Positions 2,743-63,256 of a stretch of 64,000 nt of DNA are shown one piece after another (positions within the stretch are counted from its first letter, which is position 1; each line of letters opens with the position of its first letter). The stretch is from an uncultured Candidatus Saccharibacteria bacterium (GTDB lineage Bacteria; Patescibacteriota; Minisyncoccia; Phycocordibacterales; UBA5272). The notes under the pieces are model-generated. The model was not told where the DNA came from and made no database searches. It worked only from the letters and a program-made list of their open reading frames with translations. Location of the stretch: positions 10,577-74,576 of the forward strand of contig CAYXKW010000003.1 of NCBI GenBank assembly GCA_964464695.1, in the 5' to 3' direction. The translations under genes and the position numbers were made by a program.

Positions 2743-3021
2743 TCAAGAAGAGTTGTCAGCTTTTGGAAGTGAAACATTCCTCCCTGGCACAACTGTCGAA
2801 ATTGCATGCTTATACACCATCTGTGTCACCTGATTTTTCAGCAACACAACGTACTGGTCAAAAGACTCAATCTGACCTTGAAGCTTGATGCCATTCGCCA
2901 AGTAAATTGAGACTGGGATGTTTTCCCTCCGCAAAGCATTCAAAAATGGATCTTGTAAAGGATTTTGTTTGTTTCCTGCTTTGCTTGCTGGTTTGTTTTC
3001 CAATGTAGCTGTAGCGGTCAT
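2743..3021 (-). CDS. hfq: RNA chaperone Hfq
   Basis: Sm1/Sm2 core [57 protein letters not shown] is near-identical to canonical Hfq, with a short N-terminal extension. Confidence 0.85.
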
Positions 3022-9395: not shown

Positions 9396-10037
9396 ATGAC
9401 AGTCATCAAACACAGCGACCAGCGTGTCGCAATTTTTATTGATACACAAAACTTGTATCACAGTGCAAAAAATCTTTACAATACAAAAGTAAATTTTGGC
9501 GCAATTATGGAGACCGTAACCGGTAAACGTAAACTTATTCGTGCTCTCGCATATGTTATTACAACTGAAGCAGGGGATGAAACACAATTTTTTGAAGCAC
9601 TCACAAAGCTTGGAATTGAAACAAAAACAAAAGATCTCCAAATATTTTATGGAGGTGCTAAAAAAGCCGACTGGGATGTTGGTATGGCGGTGGACGCTAT
9701 TCGTATTGCGCCAAAAGTTGATACGATAGTACTCGCAACAGGGGATGGAGATTTTGTGCCACTTGTTAATTTTCTCAAGGAACACTTTGGTGTCCAGGTG
9801 GAAGTAATTTCATTTGGTAGATCATCATCAACTAAACTTCGCGAAGCATGTGAAGATTTTATTGATATGTGTGACCAACCAGAGAAGTTCCTCATGGGGT
9901 ACAGAGTCAGGAGACCTGCACCAAAAAAGGGGAAGACTCGTGATACCAGCGTCAAAAAATCAGTCCGCAAAGAATATTCAGATGAAGACTTGGGAATTTT
10001 TAGCGGGGAAAGTCCTTCGGGAGAAACAAAGAATTAA
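9396..10037 (+). CDS. NYN-domain (LabA/DUF88-like) putative RNase with basic C-terminal tail
   Basis: RVAIFIDTQNLYHSAK...KADWDVGMAVDAI...IVLATGDGDFVPLV matches the NYN/LabA-like PIN-fold pattern. It sits where pnp usually follows rpsO. Confidence 0.6.
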   Translation: MTVIKHSDQRVAIFIDTQNLYHSAKNLYNTKVNFGAIMETVTGKRKLIRALAYVITTEAGDETQFFEALTKLGIETKTKDLQIFYGGAKKADWDVGMAVDAIRIAPKVDTIVLATGDGDFVPLVNFLKEHFGVQVEVISFGRSSSTKLREACEDFIDMCDQPEKFLMGYRVRRPAPKKGKTRDTSVKKSVRKEYSDEDLGIFSGESPSGETKN

Positions 10038-10927: not shown

Positions 10928-12483
10928 TGAGTGTTGCTATAACACATTCTGCACACATTGTTGGCCTACAAGCTTCACAGGTAACTGTCGAGGTGGACGT
11001 CTCATCTGGTTTATATTCTTTTGCAATTGTAGGCTTGCCCGATAAAGCAATTGAAGAAAGTAAAGACAGAATTATTGCAGCACTAAAAAATAGTGGGGCG
11101 AGGAACCCAAAAACAGAAAACCATAAAGTTACTGTTTCACTTTCTCCAGCGAGTGTAAAGAAAGAGGGGTCACATTTTGATGTACCAATCGCTCTTGCAT
11201 ATCTTGTTGCATCCAAACAGTTATCTCTTCCAAAAGATATCGGATGGTTCGTTGGTGAACTATCCCTCACCGGTGAAATACTTCCCATGAAAGGAGTCCT
11301 TGTCATCGCAGAATTTGCAAAAGCGTGCGGTGCTCGTGCACTCTACGTTCCGTATGCAAATAAAGAAGAAGCTGCGCTTATTGATGGACTAGTAGTATAC
11401 GGATGTACCTCACTTTCTGATATTGTAACGCACCTCGGAGGCGCGTTTGAAAATAATAATAGTATTTTTGAAATTATTCCTCAAGAAAAAACAGCAATTA
11501 TCTATTCACGTCCTGAATCATTTTTAGATTTTAAAGATATCAAAGGACAAATTTCCGCAAAACGCGCATTAGAAATTGCTGCGGCAGGAGGTCACAACAT
11601 TGCTCTCTATGGACCACCAGGAACTGGAAAGACAATGCTTGCTCGTGCATTTACAGGGATTTTACCACCACTTACTCACGATGAAACACTTGTGGTTACT
11701 CGCATTCATTCACTTATTAACAAAGACGTAACTATTATTTCTCACCCACCACTTCGGAGCCCTCATCACACATCATCACATGTTTCTCTTGTTGGAGGAG
11801 GGACAAACCCACGACCAGGAGAAATTACGCTTGCTCATCACGGTGTACTTTTTTTAGATGAGTTCCCTGAGTTTGATAAAAAAGTTATTGAATCATTACG
11901 AGAACCGCTTGAGGAGGGTCACATCACTGTTTCAAGAGCTAAGGGATCTTTTACCTTTCCTGCATCATGCACGCTTATCGCTTCCATGAATCCATGTCCC
12001 TGCGGATACATGGGAAGTAAGCTCAAACGCTGTATCTGCAAACCGTCTGATATAGATAAGTATGCGAGAAAATTATCAGGACCAATCATGGATCGTATCG
12101 ATATGTGGGTACCAGTACTTCATGTAGACTATGACACCTTATCAAAAAGTGAAGGTGGCGAGGGGAGTGAGCTCGTTCAATCAAGAGTACTACAAGCCAG
12201 GGAATTTGCTCGCTCTAGATTTAGGAATAACGGAAATACAACACTTTTAAAAAATAAAGATTTGCGTGCAAAAGATTTAGAGTTGTACATTCAACTGGAT
12301 CCGAAGTGCACTGAACTCATGAAAAAGTTATCTACTTCATCTGTGTTATCACCGCGTGCGTATCATCGAGTGCTGCGACTAGCTCGAACAATTGCAGACT
12401 ATAGGGGAGACGACAATATTACTGAAGCAGATATTTTAGAGGCATTCCAATATAGACCGAAGTTGTACCAGGATAGATTGTAG
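10927..12483 (+). CDS. comM: Mg-chelatase-like AAA+ ATPase, YifB/ComM family
   Basis: N-terminal Lon-like domain (IVGLPDKAIEESKDRI). Walker A GPPGTGKTM. LFLDEFPEF. Zinc-ribbon-like MNPCPCGY. Typical YifB C-terminus. Confidence 0.85.
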   Translation: MSVAITHSAHIVGLQASQVTVEVDVSSGLYSFAIVGLPDKAIEESKDRIIAALKNSGARNPKTENHKVTVSLSPASVKKEGSHFDVPIALAYLVASKQLSLPKDIGWFVGELSLTGEILPMKGVLVIAEFAKACGARALYVPYANKEEAALIDGLVVYGCTSLSDIVTHLGGAFENNNSIFEIIPQEKTAIIYSRPESFLDFKDIKGQISAKRALEIAAAGGHNIALYGPPGTGKTMLARAFTGILPPLTHDETLVVTRIHSLINKDVTIISHPPLRSPHHTSSHVSLVGGGTNPRPGEITLAHHGVLFLDEFPEFDKKVIESLREPLEEGHITVSRAKGSFTFPASCTLIASMNPCPCGYMGSKLKRCICKPSDIDKYARKLSGPIMDRIDMWVPVLHVDYDTLSKSEGGEGSELVQSRVLQAREFARSRFRNNGNTTLLKNKDLRAKDLELYIQLDPKCTELMKKLSTSSVLSPRAYHRVLRLARTIADYRGDDNITEADILEAFQYRPKLYQDRL

Positions 12484-12535
12484 GATAGCTAGTAGACTTT
12501 AGCCGGTGGACTGTAGCTTTTTAATACAAATACTA

Positions 12536-12571
12536 AACAGGAGAATGACCTTTGATCATTCTCCTGTTTTA
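12536..12571. terminator. bidirectional terminator hairpin between convergent comM and M23 peptidase genes
   Basis: aacaggagaatga-cctttga-tcattctcctgtt, a 13-bp perfect stem, flanked by GTCTACAGTCTG-family motifs. Confidence 0.55.
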
Positions 12572-12606
12572 GCTACAGACTAAAGTCTAATGTCTACAGT
12601 CTGTGT

Positions 12607-23203: not shown

Positions 23204-23326
23204 CTTTACATAAGAAGGAAATGTTTACTCAAAAATACTTCTTCATTAGAGAAATGAGCGCGTCACTAAGTTATCCTCCATTAAGTTATTGCCAGTAATT
23301 TCTATGCGCTATACTCTATATATACT

Positions 23327-24253
23327 ATGAACGAACAACAAAACATGACAACAAAGAAAGCACTCATTGTTGTTGGACTTTTTATTTTTTTACTTATGAT
23401 TACGCTTGTTGCTCCTGCAACCTGGGTCGGGGTTAAGCCAAAAAAACAAACTGGTCTTATTCTTAGAAATGCTAATGATTTCGCTGTTCTTTCAAAAGAT
23501 ACAGACAGAAATAATAACCCAGACTGGAAAGACCTTCTCATGCAGACAACAAGTGCGTCCACGACCGCTGTTGCAAATAAATATATTGTTACAGAAGCCG
23601 ACAAACAAAGACTTGATGACCCTAACAACATAACATCTTCTTTTTCTAAGAATCTCTACACAGTCTCTTCCTATGCAAAAAAGGCAGGGGACATGTCTAC
23701 ATCTGAACAAGAATCTATTGTAACAAGTCTAGTGACAAAGGAAGTACAAAAAATAGAGACTTCAGTGTATACATTTGATGACATTAAAGTATCAAGCACT
23801 GAAACCCCTACAAGTATTAGAGCGTACGGTAATCAACTTGGTACTATTTTTAAAAAGGCAACGAGTTTTAAGTTAGAGATTGTTGATGTAGACAAAATTC
23901 AAGCGTACAGTACAAATAAAGATCCTAATACTCTAGCTTCACTTGTTATTAAAAAAAATAATGCGAAGCTCATCTTAGAAGAACTTCTTAAAGTATCTGC
24001 TCCTAGATCAGCTTCGCCCTACCATCTCCTTATAGTTAACAGACTATCTGGGTATATAACTGTATTAGAAAATATGACTCAAGCTGAAAATGACCCTATG
24101 CGTGCAACGATTGCTTTTAATAACTATCTTCCAGCAATGAGATTACTCTTTTCATCACTATCAAATATGCAGCTGTATTTTAAGTTGTCTGATACCACAT
24201 TTTCTCAAAATGAACCTGGATATGTCTTAAATTCAGAGTATACTATCAAATAA
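23327..24253 (+). CDS. hypothetical bitopic membrane protein, first gene of the T4SS-like block
   Basis: N-terminal TM (ALIVVGLFIFLLMITLVAPA), then an about 280-aa extracytoplasmic domain. Confidence 0.45.
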   Translation: MNEQQNMTTKKALIVVGLFIFLLMITLVAPATWVGVKPKKQTGLILRNANDFAVLSKDTDRNNNPDWKDLLMQTTSASTTAVANKYIVTEADKQRLDDPNNITSSFSKNLYTVSSYAKKAGDMSTSEQESIVTSLVTKEVQKIETSVYTFDDIKVSSTETPTSIRAYGNQLGTIFKKATSFKLEIVDVDKIQAYSTNKDPNTLASLVIKKNNAKLILEELLKVSAPRSASPYHLLIVNRLSGYITVLENMTQAENDPMRATIAFNNYLPAMRLLFSSLSNMQLYFKLSDTTFSQNEPGYVLNSEYTIK

Positions 24254-25893: not shown

Positions 25894-25917
25894 TAACTTA
25901 CTTCTTTAGAAAATACT

Positions 25918-25947
25918 AAAAGTCACAAACAATTGTTTGTGACTTTT
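25918..25947. terminator. perfect 30-bp palindrome / terminator hairpin
   Basis: aaaagtcacaaacaattgtttgtgactttt. Confidence 0.5.
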
Positions 25948-26007
25948 AGTATTTTCTAATAACAACCAAACCCTTTCCTAACCTAACTATATGATACACT
26001 ACACATC

Positions 26008-29643: not shown

Positions 29644-29846
29644 AACCCCGAAAGACACCAGATGTCGGACCGCTTTGCTAACAGACAGTCAGAAAAAATA
29701 CTACGTCACTATTATTTAATTCTAGTTTTATAGCCAGAAGTCTGACAGTCTGTTTGTCGGACGTCTGAATGTACTTGTGCCCACCAAACAAAACATGTGA
29801 GCTAAAGGCTACCGGCTAAAAGCTAAAAGCTGTATACTATATACAT

Positions 29847-38557: not shown

Positions 38558-38749
38558 GGCGGTATTCTACAGGAATATTGATAATAAATCAACTAAGTGT
38601 AGATTCTAGAAAATAGAATGTAGAATACAGATACAATATATATTTCTATATTTTTAAAAAGTTTTTCTATATTCTATACTCTAATATCTAGACTCTATCT
38701 ATACGTCAAGTTGTGACAAATTTTCACACGTGTATACTAACAGGTAACT
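38558..38749. other. candidate oriC region (rpmH-dnaA intergenic, AT-rich, short TAGAAT / TCTATA-type repeats)
   Basis: Conserved gene order rpmH-rnpA-yidC / dnaA-dnaN. The 192-bp spacer is very AT-rich with repeated tagaat, tctata and ctatac units. No perfect TTATCCACA boxes seen. Confidence 0.4.
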
Positions 38750-45187: not shown

Positions 45188-45241
45188 TCAGACTGTCAGA
45201 CCACTTCGTTGACAGACATCAGACAAATTAAAACACACAAT

Positions 45242-45279
45242 AAAATACAGGGACAACCGAAGGTTGTCCCTGTATTTTT
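45242..45279. terminator. bidirectional rho-independent terminator
   Basis: aaaatacagggacaacc-gaa-ggttgtccctgtatttt, a 16-bp perfect stem. Confidence 0.65.
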
Positions 45280-45320
45280 AGTCAGTAGTCGCACTGTCTG
45301 GCGGTCTGTTTGTCTTCTAC

Positions 45321-45500
45321 CTACCAGTATCCTTCATCATTTGCAGCAAACGCGATATCAATCTCATCTGCCTCCTCATCATCTTCTACTTTAAAAATAA
45401 CCACCTCTTCGTCTACCACAATGTCACCCTCGAACACCTCTTCTAAGGCATCAGGGTTTATATCTCCAACCGGTTTTGTTTCTTCTTCTTCAATAAGCAT
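45321..45500 (-). CDS. small highly acidic protein (59 aa), downstream of ruvC on the minus strand
   Basis: Not in track (<60 aa). Minus-strand translation MLIEEEETKPVGDINPDALEEVFEGDIVVDEEVVIFKVEDDEEADEIDIAFAANDEGYW*. Clean ATG..TAG ORF ending just before the terminator. Confidence 0.3.
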   Translation of the reverse strand: MLIEEEETKPVGDINPDALEEVFEGDIVVDEEVVIFKVEDDEEADEIDIAFAANDEGYW

Positions 45501-49823: not shown

Positions 49824-50154
49824 GTAATTAGTATACAAGATATGTCGAATGTCCGAGCCATAAATCTGTTGATGTAGCAGGGAACAGCTCATAGACTGTA
49901 GATCGAGACGGCTTGGCCCAAGACATGAATTTGCTAGTTCATCCGCGAAGATGCGAATTACCAAATTCTGAATTACCAAATTCACATCTCGGATGAAAGC
50001 TTGGCCATAAATAAGTAGCCGGCGAAGGGAACTGTAGACTGTAGTTTTATAATATTAAGACACATTTTTGATCACAGGTACATTAATAAAATATCGACAT
50101 TTTGCACCAAGACTACAGTTTACAAGCTGAAGTCTACAGTCTGAATTTTTTCGC

Positions 50155-50182
50155 TTGACAAAAGTCCATTTTCGTGTATAAT
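50155..50182 (+). promoter_or_regulatory. consensus sigma70 promoter (TTGACA-16-TATAAT) of GC-rich island gene 1
   Basis: cTTGACAaaagtccattttcgtgTATAATat read directly, about 80 nt upstream of ATG 50265. Confidence 0.5.
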
Positions 50183-50264
50183 ATATACAGAGTTTTGAGG
50201 CTTCCGGAATCCTCCGGAGATCAATAAAGACCAACCGCACATTCACTTTTCTAGGAGTTTCGAC

Positions 50265-50939
50265 ATGAAAACCTTTGCTAAAATGGCTTTCGTACTTGCT
50301 TTGGCCTTTGGTTCGCAGTTCGCTTCGGCGGTCTGCTTCCAGAATCCGAGCCCAATTCCGTACGGAACTGGCCCACTTCACCCTGTAAACGGCCTCTGGT
50401 GTACCGAAAGGCCCATCCAGAACCAAGGCTTTGGACAACAACAAGTCATTGTTCAACAGCAAGTCGCTGTACCACAGCAGGTGCAGCTCGTGCCTGTCCA
50501 AGGAGTCCCGAACCAATTTACTTCCGGCGGCAATGTCTACAACTGCTCCACACTGAGAAGTGTGGTTGGTGGTGTGCTGGGCGCTGTTGGAGGGCATTTG
50601 GTTGGTAAGAACATTACCACACGAGGTCACAACCTCGGCGGTCTTGGTGCAATTGGAGGAGCTGTCGCAGGTAGTCAAATTGCTTGCGAATTGGCAGGTC
50701 CTCAGTCTGTCCAGCAAATAAATGTTGTAAGACAAGGAGTTTCTGGCGTTTCTGGAGTTCCTTCGACAACAGTTGTTGCAGGCCGTCAAAAACCTCCTCC
50801 TCCACCTGCTGGCAATTGGACTTGCAACTTTTCGCAGAATGGTCAAATCACCGAAACGGTGATGACGACAGATGATGCGACTTGCAGGGACTGGACGAAG
50901 GCAGTGGCGGTCTACAAAGGTCTGATCGCAGCGAATTAA
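50265..50939 (+). CDS. secreted Q-rich glycine-zipper protein with C-terminal Cys-bracketed motif (224 aa)
   Basis: Signal peptide MKTFAKMAFVLALAFGSQFASA. Q-rich segment. Glycine zipper VVGGVLGAVGGHLVG...LGGLGAIGGAVAGS. PPPPP. C-terminal NWTCNFSQNGQITETVMTTDDATCRDWT shared with ORF 51125-52120. Confidence 0.6.
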   Translation: MKTFAKMAFVLALAFGSQFASAVCFQNPSPIPYGTGPLHPVNGLWCTERPIQNQGFGQQQVIVQQQVAVPQQVQLVPVQGVPNQFTSGGNVYNCSTLRSVVGGVLGAVGGHLVGKNITTRGHNLGGLGAIGGAVAGSQIACELAGPQSVQQINVVRQGVSGVSGVPSTTVVAGRQKPPPPPAGNWTCNFSQNGQITETVMTTDDATCRDWTKAVAVYKGLIAAN

Positions 50940-50972
50940 TTTCGCCACCCATAAGCAGGTGTAAAATGCCTC

Positions 50973-51004
50973 AACCCCCGTCATTTCGATGGGGGTTTTT
51001 CTTA
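50973..51004 (+). terminator. rho-independent terminator after island gene 1
   Basis: aacccccgtc-atttc-gatgggggtt followed by TTTTTCTT. Confidence 0.6.
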
Positions 51005-51025
51005 TATATACAGGAGAAATTTGAC

Positions 51026-51053
51026 TTGACAAAAGTAGAATTTCATGTATACT
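51026..51053 (+). promoter_or_regulatory. consensus-like sigma70 promoter (TTGACA-16-TGtATACT) of island gene 2
   Basis: gacTTGACAaaagtagaatttcaTGTATACTgta shares the cTTGACAaaagt core with the promoter at 50155. Confidence 0.5.
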
Positions 51054-51124
51054 GTAATCATGTTTGTGTGGTATTAAAAACCCACGAGCACCGATGTTCT
51101 TTCCAAATCAACCAATGACCAGCA

Positions 51125-52120
51125 ATGGTCACAGCGTCTAAGGAGGCGCTACAAATGACAAATCCAAAAACCGTCCCCGCGACCCCTGCACCCCGCGCCT
51201 CGCGTGCAAAACCTGCACAAGTGGCTGCACCTGGAGCAGTCGTTCAGCAGAAGACGAGCATGACCGCATGGGTGGCCTTGGCTGCTGTGGTGATGCTTGC
51301 CATCATCATTGCCGCCTGGAAGTTTGGACCGATTGGTTCTGACAATCCTGCACTCGGTTCTTCGGAACCGAGCAAGGCTGTAGCAGTGAGCCAGTCTGCC
51401 GTCGTTGCTCCCGTGGATCATGTTGCAAAAGCTTCGGCTGTGGCGACAGTGGTTTGCGACAAGGACAACACTCAAACCGCGAAAGCGATTGGGAAGACAG
51501 CCTCTGCGGTGGCAACGTGTGGAAACACGAAGCCTGCTGTGCGGGTGGCAAAAGCTCCTGCAAAAGCTCCTGCAAAAGCAAGTGTTGCTCACGCAGCACC
51601 TGCCGGTATGAGCGCCGAAACCGTCCGCCGCATGGCTGACGAAAACATCGCTCGCCGGATCGCATCGGGGGTGAAAACCACCTCCGCAGCCGCTTCTTCA
51701 GGAATTTCGGGTATCCCGCGTTTTCCTGAAGAAGGGAAGGTCTACTCTGATGCCGAAGGTAACACCTTCGAACGTCATACTGGAGGCTCACGGTTGTGCA
51801 AGTTCTTCGTGAACGGTGAATTGGTCAGTCGTAAGTTTGTCCAAGATCCGGACCCACGGAAGAGCAAGGCGCAATGCGACCTTCTGGCCGCTGAGTTCAT
51901 CGCTGGACTCACTCCGACGACACCTGAAGCTATCGTAGCTGCGGCACCGCAAGTTGCACAAGCGCCACAAGCCGTGGTTGCAAGTGCTGGTTCAGGAAAC
52001 CATACTTGCAATCTGACCTTTGATGGCAAGATCGTGGAAACGGTCACAACCATCGATGACGCTGCTTGCAAGGTCTGGACCCGAAGCCGAGGTAAGGAAA
52101 AAGGCTGGATTCCGAAGTAA
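51125..52120 (+). CDS. Ala/Pro-rich single-pass membrane protein with two copies of the Cys-bracketed motif (331 aa), paralog of island gene 1
   Basis: TM WVALAAVVMLAIIIAAW. AKAPAKAPAKA. Motif copies LCKFFVNGELVSRKFVQDPDPRKSKAQCD and HTCNLTFDGKIVETVTTIDDAACKVWT. Confidence 0.55.
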   Translation: MVTASKEALQMTNPKTVPATPAPRASRAKPAQVAAPGAVVQQKTSMTAWVALAAVVMLAIIIAAWKFGPIGSDNPALGSSEPSKAVAVSQSAVVAPVDHVAKASAVATVVCDKDNTQTAKAIGKTASAVATCGNTKPAVRVAKAPAKAPAKASVAHAAPAGMSAETVRRMADENIARRIASGVKTTSAAASSGISGIPRFPEEGKVYSDAEGNTFERHTGGSRLCKFFVNGELVSRKFVQDPDPRKSKAQCDLLAAEFIAGLTPTTPEAIVAAAPQVAQAPQAVVASAGSGNHTCNLTFDGKIVETVTTIDDAACKVWTRSRGKEKGWIPK

Positions 52121-54661: not shown

Positions 54662-54706
54662 AGTACGCTCATAAAGTTAATGCCTTATGTGAGCCGAAAG
54701 GTTAGA

Positions 54707-54736
54707 AAAGCGCGACCCGAAAGGGTCGCGCTTTTC
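54707..54736 (+). terminator. rho-independent terminator after surface protein gene
   Basis: aaagcgcgaccc-gaaa-gggtcgcgcttt followed by TC. Confidence 0.7.
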
Positions 54737-54847
54737 GCATGCGGCTACTAGCTAACAGCTAAAAAGTCCCTTCGCCTGTTGGCTTCGGACATCTTCGCGG
54801 CCGAGCCGTCTCGAGCTACCGACTATCTTCTGTGGTATTATTGACCT

Positions 54848-59526: not shown

Positions 59527-59629
59527 GTGTATTCGATTCCTTACGATGGTGACGCAGCTTACTTCTACAACAAAACACACCTGGACTACCAAGTGTGTTT
59601 TGTTGTATCGTGGTGCCCCCACAAGGGAT

Positions 59630-59782
59630 CTCTCCGACTCGTCGGATTATCAACTCGCTGGACTGCGATTTTTGCAGACTGAGTACAGTCTAAAAAATCG
59701 GGAGCCTTCGGTTCGACTCAAGTTCTGTAGAACTGTGAAATAATAAACACCCCTTTATTAAAAGAGGTGTTTATTATTTCAA
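59630..59782 (+). repeat. 153-bp module X, copy 1 (near-identical to 63029-63182)
   Basis: ctctccgactcgtcggat...aataaacacccctttattaaaagaggtgtttattatttcaa. Two substitutions and one 1-nt indel versus copy 2. Contains the palindrome ccgactcgtcgg and a terminator-like hairpin aataaacacc...ggtgtttatt. Confidence 0.85.
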
Positions 59783-59882
59783 GTGCCCCGAAACGTGACA
59801 CGACCTCCAGGGTTCATTACCCCACAAGGTCCGTTTGGTAATTTTTAGTATATCAGTTCGACCCTTCTCGTGCGTCTATGAA
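59783..59882 (+). repeat. 100-bp module Z, copy 1 (about 95% identical to 61215-61314); overlaps the 3' end of ORF 59853-61007
   Basis: gtgccccgaaacgtgacacgacctcc...cagttcgacccttctcgtgcg(t/c)ctatgaa. Confidence 0.85.
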
Positions 59883-61007
59883 TTTATCAGCTTTGACTAA
59901 TAAAGTATCAATAGCAGCATGTAAGTTTTTACATGTATCTATCTGACTGCGTTTCCAGCTTTCTATTCTTTCTCTTAAATTTTTTCTAAAAGAAGGATCG
60001 ATAATATTCCCATCTGTATCGATTTGACCAGGCTCTAAGTCTTTCCATAAAAATAACTCAAGTCCACTAATACTTATATTGTCCAAATTATCTTTATAAG
60101 TATCTATATGGGATTTTATTTTTAAATTAATATTGTTCACTATACCATCTGTCGAAAGTATTCCACCTTGTATTTGAAGTTCTTGTACTGAAAAGCTAAT
60201 AAAATCAACAACTGCTTTCATCTGTTCTTCTTCCATATCTTCAAAAGATTGAGCAATCTTTTGAATTGTAGGCTCAATAACATACAGGTCCAAATACTCA
60301 TGTATCTTATTTCTGTTTAACTCGTATTGTTTAGCAAGCAGTTCGGCGTCAAAGCCTTCTTCTCGTGGAGTTTGTTCAGGTGCAACATATTTATCTAGAA
60401 AAAGTATTTCAAGTTCCGGTACAAGAATTTTTACACCACCTAAGTCAACCGTTTCAAAGGTCTTACTAAGCAAGTCCGGAGGTAAATTAACTAAGCCTTT
60501 TGTCCTTCTAGACTCCGAACTAAAACTCTCCTCTCCCGGAAATACTTCCTCAAAGAGATTGCTGTTGCTTCTATCATTTACTCCGTACAATTCAAAATCA
60601 GCATGTGATCTGTATGGAAAATCTATAGACTTCTTTTTTCTTCCTAACACCTTGCCTCTTAAAGCAACTTCTACACCAATACCTTTGCCGAGCAAATATG
60701 TGGTACCCATTGCATCACTTTGATGCCACAAAGAAACAGCCAGTAATACTTTTTTATAAAAATCATCTATTGTATCCATCTGAACTCCGGAGTCTACAGT
60801 TGTGGATTCATGCCACCTCTTAAGCTCTGTTATCTGTGCTTGGTTTAAATTTTGAGAAATAAAACCGTTACTTTCAACTAGTAAACCCTTACTTTCGAAA
60901 AAAGCTTGTGCGTCTTTTACAGCCTCAATATTTGGAGTTATTTTTTCTTGACTAACTAGTATTTCTTGGTTTAAAGATTCGGCAGATTGTCCAAAAGGAA
61001 TATTCAT
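59853..61007 (-). CDS. hypothetical protein (384 aa), cargo of the tRNA-Lys-linked region; possible nucleotidyltransferase-like fold (very weak)
   Basis: Clean ORF. GKGIGVEVALRGK...DFEL and VKILVPELEILFLDKY segments are loosely like NTase-fold proteins but not diagnostic. The last 10 codons lie inside repeat module Z. Confidence 0.5.
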   Translation of the reverse strand: MNIPFGQSAESLNQEILVSQEKITPNIEAVKDAQAFFESKGLLVESNGFISQNLNQAQITELKRWHESTTVDSGVQMDTIDDFYKKVLLAVSLWHQSDAMGTTYLLGKGIGVEVALRGKVLGRKKKSIDFPYRSHADFELYGVNDRSNSNLFEEVFPGEESFSSESRRTKGLVNLPPDLLSKTFETVDLGGVKILVPELEILFLDKYVAPEQTPREEGFDAELLAKQYELNRNKIHEYLDLYVIEPTIQKIAQSFEDMEEEQMKAVVDFISFSVQELQIQGGILSTDGIVNNINLKIKSHIDTYKDNLDNISISGLELFLWKDLEPGQIDTDGNIIDPSFRKNLRERIESWKRSQIDTCKNLHAAIDTLLVKADKFIDAREGSN

Positions 61008-61163: not shown

Positions 61164-61221
61164 GGGGCACAGAAATACAAAAGCCACATCTTAAGATGTG
61201 GCTTTTGTATTTCTGTGCCCC
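61164..61221. repeat. perfect 58-bp palindrome (29-bp arms, centre cttaag)
   Basis: ggggcacagaaatacaaaagccacatctt | aagatgtggcttttgtatttctgtgcccc read directly. The 3' arm overlaps the start of module Z2. Confidence 0.9.
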
Positions 61222-61367: not shown

Positions 61368-62417
61368 CTATTCGTAGTATCCTCCAAGGCTTAGGTTGAA
61401 TTTACCATCCGCACGTAGCTCCTGAATAAGGTATCTTCCTGACTGATAATTTTGACCATTTGCACTTTTATAAAGTAGAACAAGTTTTAGGTTTGTCAGC
61501 TGTCTGTCGGCAAGAGCAGAAGAGCTGTATATTGCCGTTGTGTAATGTCTCGTTGTATCTCCAGCAGTAAGAAGATGCATTAGATTTTGGAGTGAATCCC
61601 CGAAGAAGTCATCTGCGATAAACTGAAACTTCATATCCATAGCACTTTCATTGCCAATATTTATAACCTTAAAACTCATCTCCTGACCGTTAGGTCCGCC
61701 AGAAGTAAGAAACTCTGATATATCCAGACGCGGTCTCGATGGGTTGTTATTTGGTATTTCTTCCAACGTCTCTCTTGTTGCTCGTACTTTCTTTCCGCTA
61801 TTAAGAGTAATAATTGTTTCGAAGTGTTTAGCTGTATCAGTAGGTTCTCCTCGATTATCTTCCACTCTCTGTTCTCCTGTCTTTCCGTCCACAATCATAT
61901 GAGCTTTTTCACTTCTCCCAGTTCTGTTTCCAATAAGAATGTGATGATCTTCATCTCCTTCTTGAGAACGAGATTCAATAAATACTTCATCTGTCTTGAA
62001 ACCATTCTTGGTGGTCTTTCCTCTTTGCTTACGCTCTTCAATAGGTAAACCACAAAATTCATACAACGTATCTCGTGAAGCAATCTTAATAAAATATCTA
62101 ACTTCGGTGAATTTGTCAGGAAGTCCCATTTGCCAATTCCAACTAGTTAGTAATCGCTCCTTTGTGTCTGATTTTTTAGGCACAGGCATGAAATGAAAAT
62201 CATATCTCCTTGTCACGACAGAAGATAGTTTGTGCTTATTCATGGCGTTAAGAAAAAACTGAGTATCATCGTATGAAAACTTTGCTTTCTTCAGTTGTGG
62301 CTCAGTAATGACCACAGTATCATCATCAATATAAAAAAGCTGATCTGTGATCAGTGCAAGAAACTTCCTCAAATTTTTAGGCACAGGGGCCTCTTTTACC
62401 TTGTTCATTTGGCACAA
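61368..62417 (-). CDS. hypothetical protein (349 aa), cargo gene immediately downstream of the excisionase-like gene
   Basis: Clean ORF. Basic/acidic mixed. No motif I can name. Real start may be MNKVKEAPV (62408). Confidence 0.5.
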   Translation of the reverse strand: MCQMNKVKEAPVPKNLRKFLALITDQLFYIDDDTVVITEPQLKKAKFSYDDTQFFLNAMNKHKLSSVVTRRYDFHFMPVPKKSDTKERLLTSWNWQMGLPDKFTEVRYFIKIASRDTLYEFCGLPIEERKQRGKTTKNGFKTDEVFIESRSQEGDEDHHILIGNRTGRSEKAHMIVDGKTGEQRVEDNRGEPTDTAKHFETIITLNSGKKVRATRETLEEIPNNNPSRPRLDISEFLTSGGPNGQEMSFKVINIGNESAMDMKFQFIADDFFGDSLQNLMHLLTAGDTTRHYTTAIYSSSALADRQLTNLKLVLLYKSANGQNYQSGRYLIQELRADGKFNLSLGGYYE

Positions 62418-62980: not shown

Positions 62981-63028
62981 TTACTTATGCTTCTCGTACT
63001 AGCACGTTTGGGTGCCCCCAGAAGGGAT

Positions 63029-63182
63029 CTCTCCGACTCGTCGGATGACCAACTCGCTGGACTGCGATTTTTGCAGACTGAGTACAGTCTAAAAAATCGG
63101 GAGCCTTCGGTTCGACTCAAGTTCTGTAGAACTGTGAAATAATAAACACCCCTTTATTAAAAGAGGTGTTTATTATTTCAAG
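63029..63182 (+). repeat. 153/154-bp module X, copy 2, directly abutting the tRNA-Lys 3' end
   Basis: See 59630-59782. Confidence 0.85.
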
Positions 63183-63183
63183 T

Positions 63184-63256
63184 GCCCCCAGAAGGGATTG
63201 AACCTTCGACCGTCTGCTTAAAAGGCAGCTGCTCTACCAACTGAGCTATAGGGACA
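63184..63256 (-). tRNA. tRNA-Lys (anticodon UUU), CCA not encoded
   Basis: Minus-strand sequence GTCCCTATAGCTCAGTTGGTAGAGCAGCTGCCTTTTAAGCAGACGGTCGAAGGTTCAATCCCTTCTGGGGGCA folds as a cloverleaf. Acceptor 7 bp (2 G-U). D-stem GCTC/GAGC. Anticodon loop CTTTTAA (U33, anticodon TTT, A37). T-stem GAAGG/CCTTC. T-loop TTCAATC. Confidence 0.8.

Follow-up and report, generated by a model that had tools for sequence, protein, structure and literature searches.

What is the short motif that recurs in four separate intergenic regions of a 64-kb stretch of DNA from an uncultured Candidatus Saccharibacteria bacterium (contig CAYXKW010000003.1; the whole 64,000-nucleotide stretch is called the window here, and positions are counted from its first letter)? 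The first-pass annotation had described it as GTCT(G)ACAGTCTG, dispersed over four gene-end regions, and had suggested a small family of the repetitive extragenic palindrome (REP) or miniature inverted-repeat transposable element (MITE) kind, a DNA-uptake sequence or the binding site of a regulator. We find that the motif consists of two neighbouring units of a tandem repeat with a YAG core, read on the complementary strand. We think it reasonably probable that these arrays belong to a lineage-specific family of intergenic heptameric simple-sequence repeats (SSRs), an estimate that refers mainly to what the repeats are and how they are laid out.

Structure of the four sites

Each pattern was compared with 100 shuffles of the window. 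The 12-mer GTCTACAGTCTG lies at 12592-12603 and 50132-50143, exact at both places as annotated, and allowing up to one mismatch gave two matches where 0.24 were expected. Taken alone this pair is suggestive at most, since two matches were reached in 6 of the 100 shuffles. Exact copies of the 13-mer GTCTGACAGTCTG occur at 29740-29752 (plus strand) and 45189-45201 (minus strand) against an expectation of 0.08, and no shuffle reached two. Both copies had been noticed, the second at its correct place and the first 7 nt away (at 29747-29759); similarly, GTCTGTTTGTC is present at both sites, at 29748-29758 and 45304-45314 rather than at 29757 and 45300, and these three positions had been wrong by 4-9 nt. 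The partner copies proved real (GACTGTAG at 12509 and 50037, CTGTAGAC at 50032).

A looser pattern describes the family better than either word. GTCTR-N2-3-GTCTR has eight matches in the window (0.63 expected; none of the 100 shuffles attained eight), and seven of the eight fall inside the four reported sites. GTCTR units on the same strand are spaced by 7 nt three times and by 8 nt three times. Given YAGAC/GTCTR units at this spacing, the reported motif is two adjacent units and no element of its own. The claim of a dispersed, intergenic and non-random repeat family with inverted partners is borne out, while the 12- or 13-mer as its unit gives way to a 7-8-nt repeat with a YAG core. A cluster of three CAGAC copies at 23502-23543 lies within a coding region and looks like chance.

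The repeat unit is 7 nt long, sometimes 8 nt, and in this genome reads YAGACNN on the opposite strand. All four sites are intergenic, and at every one YAGAC units lie to the left of the centre and GTCTR units to the right, 7 or 8 nt apart. The layout can be written as 5'-(YAG N4)n - centre - (N4 CTR)n-3', with 2-6 units per array and both arrays facing inward. Because the arrays are inverted, the two arms are complementary. For sites 1 to 4, the energies of the arm duplexes are -34.5, -30.3, -24.8 and -24.6 kcal/mol (z of -6.5, -4.9, -3.4 and -3.7), and 0-1 of 300 shuffles were equally good. These statistics establish both that the structure is repetitive and that the arms are complementary. 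Two sites have a strong bidirectional intrinsic terminator as their centre, the others an AT-rich spacer. Intergenic regions 1 and 3 are each predicted to fold whole as one long hairpin enclosing the terminator, the arms extending a 14-17-bp hairpin to an imperfect palindrome of about 100-130 nt.

Site 1 lies between the convergent comM (plus strand) and a gene for an M23/LysM peptidase (minus strand). Its left arm (12474-12517, plus strand) runs TAGATTG TAG.. TAGACTT TAGCCGG TGGACTG TAG toward the hairpin; the array starts within the last codons of comM, and the comM stop codon TAG (12481-12483) is itself a member, in the same register. The central hairpin (12535-12569) is a strong intrinsic terminator with 16 pairs in our scan. 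To its right, four clean heptads (12571-12603, plus strand; reverse complement ACTGTAG ACATTAG ACTTTAG TCTGTAG) hold GTCTACAGTCTG and end 3 nt short of the stop codon of the M23 gene. Site 3 has the same context, with tyrS (plus strand) converging on a conserved acidic open reading frame (ORF) of 59 aa (45321-45500, minus strand). Its left arm (45189-45224, plus strand; CAGACTGT CAGAC-CACTTCGTTGA-CAGACAT CAGAC) begins 1 nt past the tyrS stop codon and carries the reverse complement of the reported 13-mer, together with a composite motif discussed below. A perfect 17-bp terminator hairpin follows (45242-45278), and then the right arm (45296-45314, plus strand; GTCTGGCG GTCTGTTT GTC).

The annotation had placed all four sites in 3' regions beside terminator hairpins. 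This stands for sites 1 and 3, between their convergent genes, but not for sites 2 and 4, which have no terminator. Site 2 separates two co-directional genes. Its left arm (29664-29693, plus strand) reads GTCGGAC-CGCTTTGCTAA-CAGAC-AGT-CAGA and includes the composite motif; the right arm (29740-29767, plus strand) reads GTCTGACA GTCTGTTT GTCGGAC GTCTG with a period of 8, 8 and 7 nt; and the centre between them is 46 nt of AT-rich sequence. At site 4 the neighbouring genes diverge, with pilB (true start about 49823) on one side and a plus-strand gene at 50265 on the other. The site has a short left arm (50031-50044, plus strand; ACTGTAG ACTGTAG) and a longer right arm (50110-50143, plus strand; reverse complement CAGACTGTAG ACTTCAG CTTGTAA ACTGTAG TCT), which holds GTCTACAGTCTG and stops 11 nt upstream of a sigma70-type promoter with 12/12 consensus positions (TTGACA-16-TATAAT, 50155-50182).

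The sites fall into two pairs. Sites 2 and 3 have CAG in place of TAG, mostly with 8-nt spacing, and are about 85% identical along 35 nt of the left arm and alike at 17 of 19 positions of the right arm. Sites 1 and 4 share TAGCCGG..ACTGTAG in the left arm and GTCTACAGTCTG in the right arm; GTAG is present in both and absent from sites 2 and 3. The four centres are related neither in sequence nor in length.

Periodicity, core and orientation in related genomes

The best ComM and TyrRS relatives of this genome are metagenome-assembled Patescibacteria with up to 81-86% identity, labelled Paceibacterota, Nomurabacteria or 'uncultured Saccharibacteria'. In 1.41 Mb of these relatives the exact 12-mer and 13-mer have no copies, and matches are confined to two contigs of the same organism. 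Pentamers are hardly more telling: their clustering alone, over all loci, gave 41 clusters where 40 were expected, and CAGAC is just 1.9-fold enriched around hairpins. The signal emerged once periodicity was measured. In a survey of 2.48 Mb of related loci, 95 tandem-periodic segments have a lag of 7, compared with 3, 2, 12, 19, 16 and 13 at lags 4, 5, 6, 8, 9 and 12 and none at lags 10-11. Of these 95, 44 lie in the roughly 7% of the sequence that is free of ORFs of at least 80 aa. Complementary flanks are also found in these loci: around 428 perfect hairpins, the 45-nt flanks are complementary at z < -2 in 12.6% of cases and at z < -3 in 6.3%.

The repeated units have a common core. TAG/CTA is the trinucleotide most over-represented in them (46 of 88 units, 21.6 expected, z 6.3). 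In flanks scanned in the direction of their hairpin, lag 7 yields 125 self-pairs of TAG, compared with an average of 18 for lags 5, 6, 8 and 9, a signal far above that of any other of the 64 trinucleotides; CAG is second-tier (26 vs 9) and CTA is near background (14 vs 7.5). The spacing is tight, since consecutive TAGs in the flanks of the z < -2 hairpins are 7 nt apart in 56 of 126 cases (about 85% of the 6-8-nt spacings), with the next peak at 14, and the last TAG stands a median of 21 nt from the foot of the hairpin. Aligned on TAG, the units have the consensus TAG-A/C-C/T-A/T-T/G (TAGAYWK), so that TAGACTT and TAGACAT of the window are close to the clade consensus. Orientation is equally regular. 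Pairs of TAG at lag 7 that face inward number 62 on the left and 63 on the right, those that face outward 4 and 9 (125 vs 13, about 10:1), and with gene calls that are crude (stop-to-stop ORFs) the bias is equal on both sides and holds in convergent, co-directional and divergent contexts.

The signature is limited phylogenetically. TAG/CTA pairs at lag 7 occur 77 times per 100 kb in the window and 68 times in close relatives, falling to 34 and 17 in more distant tiers, and inward arrays accompany 38 of 221 hairpins in the close tier vs 4 of 151 in the middle tier. It marks a clade at roughly 62% ComM/TyrRS identity or more and fades beyond. This generality of the pattern across the clade had been missed in the annotation.

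The same scan, applied to the window, gives 49 TAG/CTA pairs at lag 7 vs 14-21 at other lags. Eight of the ten series of at least three units are intergenic, counting one at 23302-23318 that the scan calls genic and that sits just upstream of the start at 23327, and the 64 kb hold at least five YAGA-type sites. An inverted heptad pair that the annotation had not listed lies in the intergenic region between rpmH/rnpA and dnaA (38600-38699, plus strand). Its left array (38600-38627) reads TAGATTC TAGAAAA TAGAATG TAGAATA and its right array (38667-38699) CTATATT CTATACT CTAATAT CTAGACT CTA, around an AT-rich centre of 39 nt, and a TATACT box and the dnaA start (38750) are just downstream. This pair may be relevant to the function of the origin or of the dnaA promoter. 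A one-sided series (54745-54763, plus strand; CTACTAG CTAACAG CTA) lies directly 3' of a hairpin at 54704-54736.

How do these numbers bear on a DNA-uptake sequence, to be recognized by the competence and type IV pilus apparatus of the neighbouring genes, for which the annotation had pointed to T4SS/pilus and comM genes? Known uptake sequences, such as the DNA uptake sequence (DUS) of Neisseria and the uptake signal sequence (USS) of Haemophilus, are fixed 9-12-mers that occur about once per kb, inside genes too, and inverted pairs at terminators are typical of them. Here, the motif occupies four places in 64 kb, all of them intergenic; there is no constant 9-12-mer, the conserved part being 3-5 nt; the exact 12- and 13-mers are missing from the 1.41 Mb of relatives; and a tandem 7-nt periodicity with genome-specific units is foreign to such sequences. 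Set against these points are the comM gene and the pilB-like ATPase gene of the window, GTCTGAA at two sites (as in the Neisseria DUS) and natural competence reported in Saccharibacteria (PMC10187176, PMC10633639). We regard an uptake function as extremely unlikely, and this suggestion is not supported.

A core that reads TAG also invites the idea that the arrays provide stop codons before the terminator for ribosomes arriving from either side. All three frames could be served, as neither 7 nor 8 is divisible by 3, and TAG faces incoming translation on both strands; in a variant of this explanation, an array would arise when the final 7 nt of a gene, with its stop codon, are duplicated. The comM stop codon does belong to the series at site 1, and ACTGTAG is the last 7 nt of comM in relatives. 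Of 28 genes that precede arrays, 17 end in TAG, compared with 26% genome-wide (an enrichment that is partly ascertainment, as a TAG stop helps a pair to be counted), and the stop is in phase with the TAG series in 12 of the 28, with five long series such as 0, 7, 14, 21, 28. The same property has been noted for the TAACTGA repeats of marine Beggiatoaceae (PMC4679880). On the other hand, the main stop codon, TAA (63%), is aperiodic (49 pairs at lag 7 vs 44 at other lags), the CAG units of sites 2 and 3 carry no stop, and arrays are equally common where no gene ends, that is, on the downstream sides of co-directional pairs, at divergent promoters and upstream of dnaA. We give this explanation little credence.

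The same YAG core, with its unconserved spacers, 2-6 units per array and median of 21 nt to the hairpin foot, resembles the RNA operators of ring-shaped attenuation proteins such as HutP and TRAP, whose binding 5' of a hairpin would modulate termination. HutP recognizes the A and G of XAG motifs at 7-nt spacing (U498, U505 and U512; the model RNA is (UUUAGUU)3), and three such motifs lie on each side of the G+C-rich stem of the Bacillus subtilis hut terminator (PMC2425495). The likeness to the YAG arrays extends to the position of the motifs, which flank the stem of an intrinsic terminator, and the mix of TAG and CAG in the window fits the 'XAG' rule. However, both HutP clusters lie on one RNA strand of a 5' leader, whereas the arrays here are reverse-complementary, are found in every intergenic class and have a downstream array that reads CUR on that strand. 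For co-directional gene pairs, with the crude gene calls, arrays are as common on the downstream as on the upstream side (24 vs 27 pairs); one-sided arrays have no preference for the sense-upstream side (9 vs 10); and arrays also occur upstream of promoters and start codons, with CTA on the sense strand. By analogy with HutP the arrays could be RNA operators, and we consider this improbable.

Orthologous regions allow the arrays to be followed between species. Inverted arrays surround a terminator at the orthologous 3' end of comM in related loci L003-L006, L011, L020, L026 and L067, and at that of tyrS in L083, L089, L090, L093, L095 and L125. TAGAC/CAGAC units are reused in seven of the relatives (L003, L005, L006, L020, L026, L067 and L125), and different units (ATAGAG, GGTAGGT, GTTAGG, ATTGGCT, AGGGTGA, GAAGAAAG and AGTTTC) are found in others; unit number and unit sequence both vary between species. 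Separate terminators of a single locus carry the same unit. When distant arrays are compared, 21% of the pairs within a locus agree in at least 6 of 7 unit positions, vs 5% of pairs between loci. In L083, L125 and L035, both arms contain identical runs of 18-20 nt, with variant units in the same order and spacer positions included. Longer perfect heptamer arrays also exist, namely (GGTAGGT)9-10 at L011:7329-7419, about 14 copies of GGCTACT at L041:8140-8249 and about 11 of GGTGAAA at L161:13684-13769, so the family can expand well past the 2-6 units of the window.

One longer element stands out within the arms. The composite YAGAC-CGCTTCGCT-NA-YAGA occurs in the window at 29664-29693 and 45197-45224 and, beside terminators, in six other loci of different metagenome-assembled genomes, as seven instances (L007:19871-19907, L011:2982-3020, L012:11570-11597, L020:3343-3381 and 11013-11046, L038:7841-7879 and L084:892-929); with the window, seven genomes carry it. 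Four exact 13-mers were counted where 0.07 were expected. The composite occupies only one arm of each site, and its insert has the potential for a mini-hairpin of the GCGAAGC/GCTTCGC type, which is retained in the variants of the window (ACTTCGT, GCTTTGC). A profile search with nhmmer found no members beyond the nine used to build the profile, and an Rfam scan of the window, in which tRNA-Lys alone reached the gathering score, gave no family for the repeats.

This shared composite, the arms of sites 2 and 3 (about 85-90% identical), the words common to sites 1 and 4 (TAGCCGG..ACTGTAG on the left, GTCTACAGTCTG on the right) and the use of one unit type at several sites of a genome are what one might expect of a small non-autonomous mobile element, whether a MITE, a foldback element or a REP or bacterial interspersed mosaic element (BIME), with inverted ends made of subterminal repeats. 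Many transposon ends are built of inward subterminal repeats that enclose a variable 'cargo', and the inward-facing repeats around a variable centre resemble them. A MITE, though, has defined ends, a target duplication and a homologous interior; neither defined termini nor a target-site duplication were seen at the four sites, and their centres are unrelated. GTCGGAC seems to form a direct repeat at site 2, but in an alignment with site 3 it corresponds to a CAGAC unit. A REP is a palindrome of 20-40 nt with a GTAG or GTGG head and a cognate gene for a REP-associated tyrosine transposase (RAYT), while the arms here have no individual palindrome and no constant GTAG head, and among about 50 window ORFs scanned against Pfam there is no Y1/RAYT or other transposase. 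REP/BIME, DUS and USS are, like the YAG arrays, extragenic, often placed between convergent genes, often arranged as inverted pairs around terminators or serving as such, and species-specific in sequence, but they are not built of 7-nt tandem units. The same orthologous intergenic regions also carry different units across species, which argues for turnover in situ rather than insertion. The chance that the sites are mobile elements thus appears slim, and the REP or MITE proposal of the annotation is not supported.

Turnover of the arrays and their possible function

Heptamers are the most abundant class of long SSRs in most prokaryotic genomes, and slippage linked to the footprint of the polymerase has been proposed for their excess (Mrazek 2007, as summarized in PMC4679880 and PMC4692102). 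The closest described case is the GGGAATC repeat of Xanthomonas (Rehm et al. 2015, PMC4692102). A genome has about 185 such sites, among them 70-75 inverted array pairs capable of forming stem-loops; 83% retain their gene context from one species to another, with a length that varies. Together with the GGGGA(C/T)T repeat of Nostoc, the GGGAATC repeat shares with the YAG arrays a 7-nt unit and a mostly intergenic, dispersed distribution, in arrays of 2 to more than 20 units; its inverted pairs likewise place arrays on opposite strands, could form stem-loops or cruciforms and keep their context while length and sequence vary (PMC4692102). There are also differences. The units of Xanthomonas and Nostoc are G-rich and form G-quadruplexes, whereas those studied here have a YAG core and no G-tract; several unit variants coexist here and differ between close genomes, unlike in Xanthomonas and Nostoc; and an orientation rule about a central terminator hairpin, seen here, is not described for those repeats (PMC4692102).

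Two further families are instructive. The short tandemly repeated repetitive (STRR) sequences of cyanobacteria are also non-coding tandem heptanucleotides, with few unit types per genome, and slippage of a polymerase with a 7-nt footprint was proposed as their origin (Mazel 1990 and Mrazek 2007, in the accounts given by PMC4692102 and PMC4679880). Their arrays are mostly long and one-sided; the YAG arrays belong to another phylum, with genomes of about 1 Mb. No terminator link and no trinucleotide core common across genomes are reported for STRR in these accounts, and both features are present here. The TAACTGA repeats comprise 169 intergenic sets of 2-6 copies (MacGregor 2015, PMC4679880); as the unit contains stop codons, they cannot extend far into genes, and a role in binding a regulatory protein has been proposed and is unproven (PMC4679880). 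Nearly all are direct repeats (one is indirect) located just upstream of start codons (PMC4679880), whereas the YAG arrays form inverted pairs with a hairpin or an AT-rich spacer at the centre. Repeats of this kind are known; what is new is their YAG core, their rule of orientation at terminators and their sharp clade boundary, and we found no description in the literature of YAG-heptad-type repeats in Patescibacteria.

How might such arrays arise and what might they do? We propose that units are gained and lost, probably by replication slippage, and that one arm may acquire runs of units from the other by copying across the hairpin, because the identical 18-20-nt runs, variant units included, are found in both arms. 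The resulting extended palindrome could then act in cis, either as a longer RNA stem on read-through transcripts or as an extrudable DNA cruciform, and the stem or cruciform would reinforce or insulate gene boundaries.

Several observations weigh against this account. A cis function for the extended palindrome at gene boundaries is deduced from the sequence and is, in our judgement, a tentative proposal, somewhat more doubtful than not. Pairing leaves the inward TAG unexplained, because units in the reverse orientation would pair equally well, and it does not explain the clade-wide consensus of the unit. With a strict TAG-7 criterion, 29 of the 45 array-bearing hairpins are one-sided, and therefore pairing of the arms cannot be the whole story. 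Sites 2 and 4 are without a terminator, so that the description 'terminator accessory' fits part of the family only. Ongoing slippage, for its part, is not demonstrated, as near-identical contigs of the same population from other samples, and likewise the L112-L114 and L160/L162 pairs, have no unit-number polymorphism. Finally, the material covers 64 kb of this genome and about 20 kb of each relative.

Neither pairing nor slippage, then, explains the YAG core, the inward orientation and the genome-wide sharing of units. A conserved core, a fixed orientation and unit sharing within a genome call for an additional sequence-specific constraint or agent. Proteins that recognize tandem units of this size exist: the omega repressor of plasmid pSM19035 binds 7-bp heptads in direct and inverted arrays on double-stranded DNA, and MetJ binds tandem 8-bp metboxes (AGACGTCT), in both cases cooperatively and with one ribbon-helix-helix dimer per unit. 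By analogy with omega on plasmid heptads, a protein that binds one unit per 7 nt would be the most attractive candidate for such an agent. The arrays could then be sites at which a clade-specific oligomeric protein contacts a YAG(A) core every 7 nt and extends as a polymer over the array. Facing inward, the arrays would load it to the left and right of a terminator, a promoter or an AT-rich centre, where it might act as a roadblock, insulator or organiser.

Many features accord with such a protein. The unit has a conserved core and four variable positions; the 7-nt spacing is strict (56 of 126 TAG-TAG spacings); the orientation rule is independent of gene direction and holds upstream of pilB and dnaA; one unit type is common to several sites of a genome; the signature is limited to one clade, as expected for a lineage-specific factor; and GGACGTCT at site 2 matches the metbox palindrome at 7 of 8 positions. 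The operators of omega and MetJ are tandem units of 7 or 8 bp as well, although theirs lie at specific promoters and conserve 5-8 bp per unit, whereas YAG arrays conserve 3-5 positions and are spread over terminators, promoters and the dnaA region. However, a core of 3-4 bp offers little specificity for DNA binding, the mix of 7- and 8-nt spacing in the window would dephase a rigid filament, and identical 18-20-nt stretches in both arms, spacers included, are not needed for binding. No candidate was identified either, and no ribbon-helix-helix gene was seen among the window ORFs scanned, those of 80 aa or more. We therefore regard binding by such a protein as rather unlikely. The annotation's regulator site fares similarly: the inward orientation and conserved core suit a heptad-binding protein, but the arrays show no tie to promoters, nor are they kept beside the orthologous promoter.

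In its widest form, this idea takes the YAG arrays as chromosomal sites bound by a lineage-specific protein, which would polymerise on the 7-nt units and converge on intergenic centres (terminators, divergent promoters and the region upstream of dnaA), with the composite YAGAC-CGCTTCGCT-NA-YAGA and its GCGAAGC-type mini-hairpin as a putative nucleation site. We consider this rather unlikely, to about the same degree as the binding protein itself. If true, a Patescibacteria clade would possess a system that sets boundaries, governs termination or organises DNA throughout the genome, and nothing comparable has been described on bacterial chromosomes.

Reading the arrays as lineage-specific heptameric SSRs has consequences of its own. 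Heptamer repeats are the commonest long SSRs of prokaryotes, and their function has been unexplained for decades. The present clade is an unusually clean case, with small genomes, a common trinucleotide core, a strict inward orientation around hairpins and a sharp phylogenetic limit, and these properties make the function of heptamers testable. For annotation, the lesson is that such motifs in Patescibacteria are not to be read as uptake signals or mobile elements.

Neighbouring genes and other features of the window

The window contains rnpA-yidC and dnaA-dnaN, and thus covers the origin region, along with a PrgI/VirB4-type secretion cluster, pilB, comM, ruvABC genes and a gene for Hfq (2743-3021, minus strand; Pfam E 4e-29), here in a Patescibacteria genome. 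The 59-aa ORF that faces tyrS at site 3 (45321-45500) is very acidic, ends in NDEGYW at its C-terminus and is kept downstream of tyrS in most relatives.

Site 2 adjoins a second, different heptad array (29801-29844, plus strand; GCTAAAG GCTACCG GCTAAAA GCTAAAA GCTGTAT), which leads into a TATACT box 7 nt ahead of the ATG of a PrgI-family ORF (29847). TATACT(A) boxes also lie near the starts of pilB, dnaA and the genes at 9396, 10154 and 23327, and their proximity to start codons hints at very short leaders or leaderless mRNAs.

Next to site 4 and adjoining pilB is an island of 51% G+C (50155-52120) within a genome of 38% G+C. Its ORFs (50265-50939 and 51125-52120) have no Pfam match, the first has a signal-peptide-like N-terminus, and they are preceded by the 12/12 consensus promoter and a structured leader. 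The -35 region of that promoter (TTGACAAAAGT) is kept in relatives L084, L090, L094 and L095.

Longer repeats are present toward the end of the window. A direct repeat of 187 nt (96% identity) occurs at 59612-59798 and 63011-63197, and its second copy abuts the tRNA-Lys gene (63182-63255, minus strand). The two copies bracket about 3.4 kb with ORFs 59853-61007 and 61368-62417, which have no Pfam match, and a second repeat, of 100 nt, lies at 59783 and 61215. Judged from this arrangement, the 187-nt pair looks like an att-type duplication from integration at a tRNA gene. Two perfect palindromes without a loop, which is unusual for terminators, lie at 61164-61221 (29-nt arms) and 25906-25959 (27-nt arms); the latter comes after a TAGcggaTAG pair at the stop codon of the upstream gene.

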